Below are positions 5,083-63,734 of a stretch of DNA of 64,000 nt, in pieces. The notes beneath the pieces are model-generated. The model worked only from the letters and a program-made list of their open reading frames with translations, made no database searches and had not been told where the DNA came from. The position numbers were made by a program, and so were the translations under genes. Source of the stretch: Octopus vulgaris (taxonomy: Eukaryota); NCBI GenBank assembly GCA_951406725.2, contig OX597815.1, positions 81,840,001 to 81,904,000 on the forward strand, written 5' to 3'. Position 1 is the stretch's first letter. Every line of letters starts with the position of its first letter.

Positions 5083-5443
5083 ATACATATATGAATGTAT
5101 ATTTGAATGTATATATATATATATATATATATATATATATATATATATATATATATATATATGTATTTATATTGCATTATTTAGCATTGTTAATGAATTT
5201 ATATCAATGTATTTGTACTTAATTATAATATAGATGTATAGATATATATGTATGTGTACATGTATTCATATATATATATATATATATATATATATATATA
5301 TATTACGGAGATGTACTCGCATAGCAAGTAATTTGATCTGAGATCGTGTGCTGAAACGAAAGCAATTGCAGCGTGGAAGGTATTTATAAGCCATTTAAGA
5401 AACACACAAAAGCCGTTCGATTCACTTCAACATTTAAGTTTAA

Positions 5444-5493
5444 TTTGTCAAAATATTTTCGTCGCTAAAATCCGCGACCTGTTCACTGACAAA
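5444..5493 (-). ncRNA. Minimal type-I hammerhead ribozyme fold, G3:C8 core variant
   Basis: Reverse complement tttgtca GTGAACA g gtcgc ggatttta gcgac GAAA atat TT tgacaaa: 7-bp stem I, 5-bp stem II, palindromic aatatt stem III. Confidence 0.7.
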
Positions 5494-5575
5494 AATCTGT
5501 GCTGCATCTCGCTAAAATCCGCGACCTGTTCACTGACAAAAAACCGTGCTGCATCTCCGAGATGCAGCACGGACT

Positions 5576-5625
5576 TTTGTCAGTGAACAGGTCGCGGATT
5601 TTAGCGACGAAAATATTTTGACAAA
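5576..5625 (+). ncRNA. Minimal type-I hammerhead ribozyme fold, G3:C8 core variant
   Basis: tttgtca GTGAACA g gtcgc ggatttta gcgac GAAA atat TT tgacaaa, identical to the minus-strand copy. Confidence 0.7.
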
Positions 5626-6119
5626 TTAAACTTAAATGTTGAAGTGAATCGAACGACTTTTGTGTGTTTCTTAAATGGCTTATAAACACCTTCCACGCTG
5701 CAATTGTATATATATATATATATATATATATATATATATACGTATGCATGTATGTATATATGTATGCATACACACCTACACACACAAATATCCTCCTCTT
5801 CCTGATTACGTTACTGCAGTCGACCTTGCTTTTGCTCATACTATTTCCTTCCCCACTCTTGTTTTTCCCGGCCATGTTTCTAATCCTTTATAGTCTCTCA
5901 GTAAATGATAGCCAGAATATGAATAGGATAAGCACCGGGGCCCCAGTTCCAATGGTATGTAACCTATATAATATGGTTGTCAAGCAAATGCCATTAGTAA
6001 TCTTTTCGACCCTATTATTTATTTTGAGTAAGCTGAGTTGACTAATGAAGACAATTCTATAGATACCGTTACCTTACATATTAACAGGTAGCAGAAATGA
6101 TGAATGATAAACGACCGAA

Positions 6120-6575
6120 TTATTATTGTTATATTGTTACTCTTGCTATTATTATTATTATTATTATTATTATTATTATTATTATTATTATTATTATTAT
6201 TATTATTACTATTATTATTGTTCTTGTTGTTGTTATTTTTTATTATTATTATCATTATTATTATTATTATTATTATTATTTATTATTATTATTGTTATTA
6301 TTATTATTATTATTATTATTATTATTATTATTATTATTATTATTATTGTTATTATTATCGTCATCATCATCATCATCATCATCATCATCATCATTCCTCT
6401 TCTTATCATCACCGTTGTCATTATCATTATTAATACAGTTGTTTTCTTGATACAGCAACAACAACAACAACAACTACTACTACTACTACTACTACTACTA
6501 CTACTACTACTACTACTACCTTACTACTACTACTAATACTAAGTAGTAGTAGTAGTATTAGTAGTAGTAGTAGTA
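6120..6575. repeat. Compound microsatellite (ATT)n/(CAT)n/(CAA)n/(CTA)n/(TAG)n
   Basis: Seen directly. Confidence 0.95.
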
Positions 6576-6829
6576 GATCGTTTTGACACTTGGGGGTAAC
6601 TTTGGTGCAGTTGTGTATGAAATGTTGTGAATGTACCCCTTAATAAACAACGTCCACCTAGAGATAAATTGGTCGTTGTGTAGATGATAGCTGAGTTGTT
6701 GGTGAAGGTCGAATATAGTCCGACACCTGATACAATTATGTAGCTAGCTGCCAAATTTACTCACTTTTAGTAGATAAAGCAGTCACCTTGTCCCCTCAAA
6801 GAAAATTAAATGCAAAATAATATACTTAT

Positions 6830-7296
6830 ATCTTTTATCTTTTGCTCGTATTAGCCATTGGAATGTGGCCATGTTGGGGCACAGTCTTGAAGGGTTTTTA
6901 GCCAGAAAATTATTCCCAGGTCTTATTTATTTTAAAGCATGGTACTTACTTGTTCTAACGTATCTTTATCAGAACCGCTAAGTTAAAGCGACGTAAAGAA
7001 ACCAACACCGTTTGTCAAGCTGTGGTGGGGAACAAACACAAAGACACACACACATTGATACTCACACGCGCGCACACACACATACACTCATGCATACATG
7101 TACAATACATGTATACATACATACACACATGTTTACGGTGGTTTTCTTTCACTTTCCGTCAATCAAATCCGCGCACAAGGCTTTTGCACCCCGGGGCTAT
7201 AGTAGAAGACACTCGCCCAAAGTGCTACGTAGTGGGACTGAACCCAGAACTATGTGGTTGGAGAAAAAATTTCTTACCACTCAGCCGCTCCTGCAC
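6830..7296 (-). mobile_element. SINE family B, diverged full-length copy
   Basis: gggactgaacccagaactatgtggttg...cttaccactcagccgctcctgcacc is the reverse complement of the family B head; tail at about 6830-7030. Confidence 0.8.
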
Positions 7297-60599: not shown

Positions 60600-60800
60600 G
60601 TTGCACATTTTGGTACAAGGCCAGCACCTTCGGGGAAGTCGAGTTAATTGACCACAGTCCTCAACTGGTACTTATTATATCAACTCCGAAAGGATGAAAG
60701 GTAAATCAACCTCAGTGGAATTTGAGCTCAGAACGTAAAGACAGACGAAATGCCGCTAAGTATTTTGCCCATCATGTTAATGATTCTACTAGGTAGCTGC
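60600..60800 (-). mobile_element. SINE family A
   Basis: tcaactggtacttattatatc...gaaaggatgaaaggt...cagaacgtaaagacagacgaaatgccgctaag. Confidence 0.8.
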
Positions 60801-61055
60801 TTTCGGAAGAGGTATACATATGATTTGACATTTTCCACTCTAGTATATTGACCGTATAGATTTAAGGGTATTATTAAAAATCAATAAATTAAATAAACAT
60901 TCGCTATAAATAATTCACTATTGAATTGCTTAATAGAGGTTATTTCTCTAAATTATATACATATATTATATACTGTGTAATTTGATTTAGGATTCCTAAA
61001 TTGAATTTTTCCCTGTAAGTTTGTAATTATATTCCCTACTATTATATATATATAT

Positions 61056-61592
61056 AATTTACAATATAAGGGCAAAAGAAAAATTCTAATGCCAAATATG
61101 CCGAAAAAAGACAAAAATTGTCAATTAGCCATTATAATTTATGCATCTCGAAACAAACCGATAGAAATTTCTAAAAAATTCGTTATTACCGTATTGGACC
61201 AATTTCGGAGTTAATTCATAAGAATTTTCTCCTCTTCAGCAGCAAATACGCGAGATATAAGTGAAATACTTACTCATACCCATGGGAAAAGCAAACACCA
61301 AGTCCTGAGCAGACCTAAGTACCCAAAATATATCCAAAATAGGAAATCTTCGGCACGTCTCGAGACACGTGTGATTCGAACTAGAAACTTTCACAGAGTG
61401 ATAGAATCCGGAAGTGAAAAATTTTATCCTACATTAGTTATAAATTTTAATAGTGTTCACTTCCGGATTCTATTTTTCTTTTGCCCTTATATTGTAAATT
61501 ATTTATAAATTTAATCTTTAAATATATTTTTTGATATGCTGGCCATTGATAAAATATTTTTTCCCGAAAATATTTTTATCCTACATTAGTTA
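61056..61592. mobile_element. Hammerhead-bearing element with inverted segments, between (TA)n tracts (Penelope-like)
   Basis: aatttacaatataagggcaaaagaaaaat (61056) is inverted at 61472-61500; atagaatccggaagtgaa (61401) is inverted at 61456-61473; ttttatcctacattagtta is repeated directly. Confidence 0.65.
61190..61250 (-). ncRNA. Minimal type-I hammerhead fold, canonical core
   Basis: cgtatttgctg CTGAAGA ggag aaaattcttatgaattaa ctcc GAAA ttgg TC caatacg: perfect ggag/ctcc stem II, GUC triplet; stem I bulged, stem III weak. Confidence 0.65.
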
Positions 61593-61707
61593 TTATATAT
61601 ATATATATATATCTGTAGAAGGTTGAAAAGGAACAAACAAGTTGATATGTATAAGGAAAATAAGACAGGGTAGAAAATGCTAAAATAATTTTATAGTAAA
61701 AAAAACA

Positions 61708-61749
61708 TTTTAGTACCGGTTTCAGTCATTGAGACTTTTACAACTTAGA
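61708..61749 (-). ncRNA. Hammerhead-like fold, U3:A8 variant (A6 mutated)
   Basis: ctaag TTGTAAA agtc tcaat gact GAAA ccgg TA ctaaa; stem I weak. Confidence 0.5.
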
Positions 61750-61853
61750 GTAAAGTATGAAGAACAATTAAATTGCGGAAAAAGTAAACTCAATTTAAAA
61801 AAAAGAACATTTCATTTAATTTTTCCAGTATTTAATTGTTTTTCATATATTAA

Positions 61854-61895
61854 TCTAAGTTGAAAAATTCGCAATGAATGAAACCGCTCCTAAAA
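61854..61895 (+). ncRNA. Hammerhead-like fold, U3:A8 variant
   Basis: ctaag TTGAAAA attc gcaat gaat GAAA ccgc TC ctaaaa; stem II covaries with the other arm. Confidence 0.5.
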
Positions 61896-63734
61896 TGTTC
61901 TTTACGATAAAATTATCTTAGCATTTTGTCTTATTTTCCATATATATATATATATATATATATGTACGTATGTATGTACACACACACACACACACACACA
62001 CACACACACACACACACACACACACACACACACACACACACATGGCTGAAATTTATAGAAAAGCAAAAGACGAAGGCAGATGTATGAGCAACAAGCAGCT
62101 GTATTAGTTTAACACCCGGGAAAGTGAGAAAGTATTTTACGTCTCGAGCCTACGCTCTTCAACAGAAAGGAATGAGAGAAAATATGCAGAGAGAATATAT
62201 ATATAAATATATATATGTGTGTGTGTGTGTATGTGTGTGTGTGTGTGTGTGTGTGTGTGTGTGTGTGTACATGATTGTGTGTCCTTGTGTCTGCATTGGT
62301 TCCTTGACAACCGGTGTTGAATTGTTTACGTACTCGTAACCTAGCAATTCAACAAAAGAGACTGATGAATTGAATAGCAAAGCCAGGAGGCATACCTACG
62401 TGGTCGAGAAGTTCGCATTATAATTGGTGCATCCAAACGTAAATAAATATTGGGGTCGATTCATTTGGCTATAACTCTTCAAAGCGGTACCCCAGCTTGG
62501 CCACAGTCCAATGACAAACAAGTATATATATATATATATATATATATATATATATATATATATATATATATTGCAGTATGTCATTATTGCATAAACTGAT
62601 CATTGCATGTTATGATAGATCTACGATGTTCGAATGGGTATGGCCTCGATAATCGGGAGGTAACTCAAAAGTCCTTACATCGTTTAGCTCTAAAACCCAG
62701 TTTTTCTTTTCTCTTCTGAATGACATTATCAGTTCACGAGTACGTAAATCATGTTCTTGGGACGAAAGAGGTCGGTCACTACCTCTTATCAGATATTGTA
62801 GTGTACTTCGGTGCACTATGCAATATAACCGACTACTCATGTAACCGACTACTTAAGTTCTGTTGAAAAAAGACTTATATATATACATATATATATATAT
62901 ATATATATATATATATATATATATATATATATATATATATATATATATATATATGTATATATATATGTATATATATATATGTATATATATATGTATATAT
63001 ATATATGTATATATATATGTATATATATATATGTATATATTTATATATATATATATAGGTATACATATATATGTATATATATATATGTAAGTATATATAC
63101 GTATATATATATATATATATATATATATATATATATATATATATATATTGTGTGTGTGTGTGTGTGTGTGTGTTGTGTGTACATATCGTATATGTGTGTG
63201 TATAGAATGAAAAAAAAAAAAGAGAATAGTCATCTATACACATACGCATTCTTTCAGACTTGCAAACACTCAGGCGGACGTATGAACACAAACATAAATA
63301 TACGCATTCCCAGAAACGGATTTAAATATAAACACATCTGGATCTGGGCGTCTGTTCTAACTGAATAAGTAAACTACACACACACACACAAACACAAACA
63401 CACACACATCTTTATCATTGACATATACACCCTCATACGCACAGACGTGTGTTCGTGCGCATGTGAGCAAGTGCGTATGTCTGTATGCTCATATTCATGT
63501 ACGTATATGTATGTATGTATGTATGTATGTATGTATGTATGTATATATATATATACACATATATACATATATAGATATGTATGTAAGCATGTATGTGGGC
63601 GTGTATATGTGTGCGTGTGTGTATAAATAAATGCACAAACACACATACAAACACACACTTATATGTACGTGAGTACCCACAAATGCATATCGTATTATTG
63701 CGTATATACATGCATATCTATACATACACATATA

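Follow-up and report, generated by a model that had tools for sequence, protein, structure and literature searches.

Five short elements, here called E1 to E5, lie in a 64,000-nucleotide stretch of the Octopus vulgaris genome (contig OX597815.1, positions 81,840,001 to 81,904,000; hereafter the window, from whose first letter all coordinates are counted). Each ends in a run of (TA)n and carries a minimal type I hammerhead ribozyme motif (Table 1). The pair between core positions 3 and 8 is C3:G8 in E2, E3 and E4, U3:A8 in E5, and G3:C8 in E1; this last, swapped pair and the likely descent of the elements from Penelope-like elements (PLEs) are the subject of this report. The window has a G+C content of 36% and abundant simple repeats, with 12,530 of its 64,000 bases masked and 70 TA runs, and its repeat landscape is reminiscent of that of octopods. 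The elements were first pointed out in an initial annotation made from the sequence alone. Of its element bounds, those of E5 omitted the tail and those of E3 differ from the ones given here. The five are mutually unlike, as it held: no BLAST similarity was found among them.

Table 1. Coordinates of the elements, motifs and associated features in the window (ca., approximate).
Feature	Position	Strand	Remarks
E1	5304..5706	both	two 5'-truncated copies of one family joined head to head, 3' ends pointing outward; arms 142/146 identical
(TA)n runs flanking E1	5268-5303 and 5707-5740
E1 motif, G3:C8	5576..5625	+	minimal type I; core 5583, U17 at 5618
E1 second motif, G3:C8	5444..5493	-	other arm; core 5486, U17 at 5451
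E1 tandem duplicate, 47 bp	5511..5557	-	third G3:C8 core (5533), broken past stem II
E1 tail, ca. 60 nt	5304..5363	-	one arm only; shared with old copy
Old single-arm E1-family copy	21760..21997 (ca.)	+	71% identical over 142 nt; core at 21778
E2	8639..9387	+	partial tandem, TA on both sides; end pieces 185/192 identical
E2 motif, C3:G8	9156..9234	+	core 9163, U17 at 9227; stem I 7 bp; palindrome ACAATTGT
E2 first motif	8641..8699	+	cut at core; 5' strand of stem I missing
E3	60258..60525	-	single arm between TA runs
E3 motif, C3:G8	60474-60416	-	core 60468, A17 at 60422; stem I 6 bp; palindrome ACGCGT
E4	61057..61593	-	full arm and inverted 3' end with extension (ca. 61472-61593, +)
E4 motif, C3:G8	61245-61186	-	core 61239, A17 at 61192; stems I and II of 6 and 4 bp; palindrome interrupted
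E5	61613..61939	both	head-to-head pair; arms 110/130 identical
E5 tail, 42 nt	61613-61654		one arm only
E5 motifs, U3:A8	+61860 and -61743	both	minus arm reads TTGTAAA (A6U)

Hammerhead motifs and their surroundings

The window was searched with a descriptor that admits any Watson-Crick 3:8 pair, at strict, medium and relaxed settings, and the counts were compared with those in block-wise dinucleotide shuffles. The strict descriptor gave three matches (GTGAACA at -5486 and +5583, CTGAAGA at -61239; signs denote strands) against a mean of 0.01 and a maximum of 1 in 100 shuffles, and the medium one, which added +9163, gave four against a mean of 0.38 and a maximum of 2 (100 shuffles). At the relaxed setting there were eight matches against 3.68, a count reached by 2 of 100 shuffles and not clearly above chance; those at 13950 and 50275 look like chance. 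The excess was confined to descriptors with a pairing 3:8, since controls with non-pairing combinations had none (strict, 0 versus 0.025; medium, 1 versus 1.45; relaxed, 11 versus 10.7; 40 shuffles). Two further descriptors, both tuned post hoc, found five matches against 0.015 with stem II left free (200 shuffles; this admits E3 at -60468) and four against 0.05 with a stem I of at least 2 bp (100 shuffles; this admits E5 at +61860). The expectation that the motifs would be commoner than in shuffled sequence was thus borne out, and a scan of the window allowing one mismatch revealed no additional elements (four matches, against 0 to 2 in shuffles). Standard searches did miss the motifs, as anticipated: no hammerhead was among the 150 Rfam matches listed of 304 for the window, nor did Rfam report one in 60258-61939 (32 matches) or 5540-5706 (19 matches), even for the canonical motif of E4.

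Every core originally named is present: GTGAACA at +5583 and -5486, CTGACGA at +9163 and +8641, CTGAAGA at -60468 and -61239, and TTGAAAA at +61860. All five elements combine a core of the form N3-UGA-N-N8-A, with 3 and 8 paired, with GAAA, the minus arm of E5 departing by its A6U change. The motifs are real; three are clean and two (E3 and E5) are defective as they stand. The proposed layout of stem I, core, stem II, GAAA and UH holds for E1, the second copy in E2, and E4, in which both stems are flush with the core, whereas in E3 the stem II helix is displaced from the core and in E5 stem I amounts to 2 contiguous bp in both arms. Within E2 the layout is complete in the second copy but not in the first. 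Stem II of E2 is long and opened by a U.U; an alternative 3' half inside it was ruled out, having no G12 and a poor stem I. What had been called a tiny stem III is instead a 6-11-nt palindrome, the 15-16 segment being palindromic and followed by UH in the elements examined. The predicted gain from forming dimers is large for E4 and for the minus arm of E5 and small for E1 (-32.7 versus -30.8 kcal/mol). The suggestion that paired motifs act as dimers does not apply in cis to E1 and E5, as the members of each pair lie on opposite strands.

The U3:A8 motif of E5 might be a chance pattern in A/U-rich DNA. Its stem I is 2 bp long, each arm has a lesion (A6U in one, a palindrome mismatch in the other), and the relaxed descriptor yields about 3.7 chance matches per window, two of the observed ones also reading TTGAAAA. 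Both arms keep U3 and A8. Such an accident seems quite improbable, however, given that stem II differs between the arms by a compensatory U-A/G-C change, that one arm has a perfect ACCGGT palindrome, that the motif sits 50-100 nt from the 3' end within a PLE-type pair, and that the matched, post hoc descriptor gave 4 against 0.05. Natural U3/A8 hammerheads have been reported (PMC3088659), some 1,300 U3-A8 copies are known from Schistosoma, and a helix I of 2 bp occurs in D. virilis; the activity of minimal hammerheads as dimers is low (PMC4209133).

Every element abuts (TA)n, as had been claimed. A run of at least five TA repeats begins no more than 170 nt downstream of a predicted cleavage site in five of five elements (range, 51-165 nt) against 10.5% of background positions, and with E3, E4 and E5 grouped in one 1.7-kb cluster the effective number of cases is about three. 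The elements have the anatomy of PLE insertions: they are 5'-truncated, E1, E4 and E5 are inverted with a tail or extension, E2 is a partial tandem, and E3 consists of one arm. This range of forms, inverted truncated copies and a one-sided tail included, was reported for PLE insertions by Craig et al. (PMC8557442). Frangieh et al. (PMC11167929) traced the tail to two start sites of the reverse transcriptase (RT), with cleavage and extension of both strands of the DNA, and two such sites would explain the one-sided tails seen here.

Long inverted arms and TA flanks would also be expected if E1 and E5 were TA-targeting miniature inverted-repeat transposable elements, DNA transposons bounded by long inverted repeats, whose likeness to hammerheads was incidental. 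Such transposons should have symmetrical inverted termini and one unchanging unit common to the copies, which is not what was found. The arms are unequal, the tail being one-sided; a single-arm copy exists; contigs from other copies depart at 5559-5560 into different sequence, and none of the pieces listed runs across the whole of E1. Inverted arms are missing from E2 and E3, and the excess of motifs over shuffles persists, all of which leaves this explanation largely refuted and very improbable.

The E1 family

The plus-strand motif of E1 has a stem I of 7 bp, an extra G at position 9a, a stem II of 5 bp closed by G10.1-C11.1, and the palindrome AATATT. Its G3:C8 core is found in four copies of the family in the window, including the old one, absent from the initial annotation, which keeps G3 and C8 and has U4C and G12A changes. 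The start point is identical to the nucleotide in all three units of E1 (5511, 5558-5560); it lies some 23 nt 5' of the core, where there is a short palindrome, and points to a single site of fold-back or template switching.

Words of E1 are present in 20 of the 24 listed sequencing runs, from five coded organisms. Contigs from four runs aligned to E1 (11,683 in X1, 5,036 in X5, 1,397 in X10 and 3 in X18), E1 being the only element to which run contigs were aligned, so that the family-level variation is that of E1 alone. The family is large and varied. Among the variants listed for these thousands of contigs, none at 4% or above falls in the core (5583-5590, 5609-5612 and 5617-5618), and of those within the motif three fall in loop II while two preserve pairing (C5608T, giving G.U, and A5621G, giving U.G). 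A second loop II type among the contigs has an identical G3:C8 core, and other copies, as seen from loose contig ends, diverge upstream of 5560 into different sequence. Because no such core variants are listed, the second loop II type has the same core and the old copy keeps G3 and C8, G3:C8 is the state of the family as a whole. The invariance of the core is not statistically significant by itself (P = 0.28 for 13 variable sites missing 13 core sites). A search of metagenome contigs with the E1 core pattern gave no match.

In its short stem I, unpaired 9a base, G10.1-C11.1 pair and palindromic 15-16 segment, E1 resembles the minimal hammerheads of metazoan PLEs (Cervera and de la Pena 2014, PMC4209133); the last three features go beyond those pointed out at the start, and favour a PLE origin. 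E1 differs in its G3:C8 pair and in the G at 9a, the text of that paper and the searched part of its supplement containing C3-G8 and U3-A8 only. Its UUU triplet, like the G at 9a, lies outside the published H consensus (PMC4209133). An engineered C3G/G8C exchange partly restores cleavage by the hammerhead of an Anolis PLE (PMC11167929), a partial rescue on which PMC8495972 concurs, and cleavage there is assisted by protein (PMC11167929). G3-C8 was stated, as data not shown, to work better with G17 than with C17 (PMC3884650); the U17 of E1 and the A17 of a viral motif described below (L108), a sample of two, are in line with this. The E1 motif is predicted to be a slow self-cleaver.

E1 may represent an animal retroelement family that was massively amplified with an active G3:C8/U17 hammerhead, a tentative reading to which we give somewhat less than even odds. 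The swap from C3:G8 would then have needed two transversions by way of a dead intermediate, and U17 would avoid an inhibitory G3-C17 mispair. It is also conceivable, though doubtful, that the family has the same PLE-type origin and that its motif does not cleave, being instead a folded RNA element (an RT pause or protein-binding site) or a frozen relic that a successful family has carried along. This would agree with the partial nature of the G3:C8 rescue, with the dispensability of cleavage for insertion in vitro (hammerhead mutants were without effect; PMC11167929), with the UUU triplet, with a 10-nt A/U palindrome able to extend over A13 and A14, and with the weak statistics of core conservation. 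It is unlikely, however, that two complementary transversions would fall on exactly these partners unless the 3:8 pair were under selection; G3 and C8 are retained across three loop II types, and both listed stem variants preserve pairing. These observations suggest selection on G3:C8 in the E1 family.

The G3:C8 family looks to be the one feature that is undescribed. The surprise that the initial annotation attached to the whole repertoire was exaggerated, as minimal hammerheads at PLE ends, opposite-strand pairs and inverted stubs, U3:A8 and TA targeting are already in print. The literature that we searched on natural G3:C8 and on cephalopod PLE hammerheads contained no description of one, a statement that does not extend to Lünse et al. 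2017 (RNA Biol 14:1499). PLE hammerheads cleave poorly and are dispensable for insertion in vitro, and a large natural family with a swapped 3:8 pair is the evolutionary counterpart of the compensatory-mutant experiment; E1 is a ready substrate for a cleavage assay. Were it active, its fixation would show selection on the catalytic 3:8 pair in Penelope-type retrotransposition in vivo, contrary to the dispensability in vitro, and searches with CUGANGA and UUGANAA would leave entire high-copy families of ribozymes undercounted in the genomes of animals. Hammerhead descriptors should admit any Watson-Crick 3:8 pair.

Origin of the elements

The five elements are likely to be truncated 3'-end insertions, of the pseudo-long terminal repeat (pLTR) type, from several families that are Penelope-like or depend on Penelope, among them one with the swapped pair and the slow cleavage predicted above; we put the probability of this reading at roughly 0.75. 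It is favoured by the confinement of the motif excess to pairing 3:8 combinations. The initial annotation had similarly proposed several PLE or retrozyme families that prefer TA. The PLE-type anatomy and TA flanks are consistent with this; descent from an element with a PLE protein is presumed, and the retrozyme label suits E2, in part, and none of the other four.

On this model a PLE RT-endonuclease would nick one strand of (TA)n or both, and reverse transcription would begin 50-165 nt downstream of the hammerhead site; use of two different start points would account for the one-sided tail. Synthesis would halt early, at or slightly past the hammerhead, leaving abortive stubs; priming on both strands would give the head-to-head pairs (E1, E4 and E5), and copying across a tandem RNA would give E2. 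In the source RNA two copies of the motif may associate by way of the palindrome to form a weak ribozyme, whose cleavage is probably aided by protein. An ancestor of E1 would have exchanged C3:G8 for G3:C8, with U at 17. The genomic copies in the window are likely inactive, because arms on opposite strands would pair to make one long hairpin, and lesions affect the core in several of them.

Among described systems, PLEs of the Hydra clade offer several likenesses: a (TA)n target, a hammerhead placed some 100-200 nt before the 3' end, a frequent U.U opening of stem II and U17, inverted truncated partners and tails. (TA)n is the target of 26 of 27 Hydra families, including Hydra-1_Obim from Octopus bimaculoides (PMC8557442), and all five elements lie in (TA)n. 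By our own count, 14 of the 26 Hydra-clade hammerhead rows in File S2 of that paper have a U.U opening of stem II, as in E2, and 10 have U17; all 26 are C3:G8 by construction of the descriptor. TA targeting is also a trait of Naiad and hence not diagnostic, and the clade is defined by its protein, with RWK and DKT motifs and no CCHH, which is absent from the window. The Poseidon element PAc of Anolis is comparable in its AT-rich targets, its priming on both strands, its tail from two RT starts and its partly active C3G/G8C form (PMC11167929); it differs in that the swap was engineered and that its open reading frame (ORF) begins in stem II, whereas E1 shows no conserved ORF start. Minimal hammerheads of metazoan PLEs occur mostly singly or as opposite-strand pairs 100-700 bp apart (PMC4209133).

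Several observations weigh against this explanation or parts of it. Among 146 ORFs of the window (at least 58 aa, low in simple repeats), none had a Pfam model for an RT or a GIY-YIG endonuclease, the domains expected of an autonomous PLE, and the only three Pfam matches were weak, unrelated and under cut-off; nor was a conserved reading frame seen in E1 to E5. Short motifs of the five elements, searched for in the PMC8557442 supplement, pointed to no matching family and gave one isolated, chance-looking match. The old E1-family copy lies outside TA. To these must be added the displaced stem II of E3, the short stem I of E5, the UUU triplet, 9a G and small dimer gain of E1, the non-significant invariance of its core, and the in vitro indifference of PLE insertion to hammerhead mutations.

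A further alternative is that the elements are non-autonomous, retrozyme-type sequences spreading by small circular RNAs, with no coding parent that shares their ends. Animal non-LTR retrozymes are likewise non-coding and carry type I hammerheads (PMC7229834; bioRxiv 10.64898/2026.07.22.740005), and they have been proposed to derive from PLEs (bioRxiv 10.64898/2026.07.22.740005). The sequence upstream of the motif is non-coding in E2 (about 300 nt) and E4 (about 190 nt). E2, built of an end piece of about 200 nt, the non-coding stretch and a second end piece, has two same-strand motifs whose predicted cleavage sites are 535 nt apart. We nevertheless consider this origin unlikely. Such retrozymes are same-strand tandems of 150-450 bp with complete canonical hammerheads (PMC7229834); here the motifs are minimal, four of the five elements are not tandems of this kind, and E2, the sole tandem, exceeds that range and has a truncated first motif. 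The PLE reading accommodates E2 as a partial tandem.

Viral contigs and further features of the window

The G3:C8 pattern was found at 120 loci in viral contigs, from 40 of 64 parts, and three of these matches are structured, as against 2.86 with shuffled flanks, so that there is no excess in number. Of the three, only the one in L108 (an IMG/VR contig of 169,713 nt) is convincing as a candidate: on its minus strand lies a well-formed G3:C8 type I motif with stems of 5, 5 and 10 bp (20 bp in total) and A17. The site recurs in L122, and Rfam gave no match on L108. A follow-up viral pattern returned six motifs in five loci, five of them C3:G8 and the sixth the L108 site again. Canonical C3:G8 type I motifs are present in L121 and L123-L125, three of them within about 1.2 kb of one contig.

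Some smaller features were observed around E3 and E4. The 5' end of E3 (60500-60527) is 86% identical over 28 nt to a nearby abundant repeat (60750-60777) that resembles a short interspersed element. At the E4 junction, 61401-61480 forms a local inverted repeat around the motif CCGGAAGTG, which we take to be ETS-like; on the minus strand a donor-like GTAAGT precedes the E4 core by about 35 nt. A short segment at 60985-61042, similar by eye to the 3' end of E4 and directed into the same TA run, is possibly another related stub.

Elsewhere in the window, four stretches resemble fragments of transposable elements by eye. Those at 432-854 and 9536-9829, both on the minus strand, are presumably 3' coding ends of long interspersed elements, and those at 35400-35620 and 51358-51699, on the plus strand, are assumed to be N-termini of mariner/Tc1-type transposases; the ORFs scanned there had no Pfam match that would confirm these assignments. 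An abundant interspersed repeat family occupies 27900-29750, 42100-42950 and 45624-45996, with copies both inverted and in tandem.

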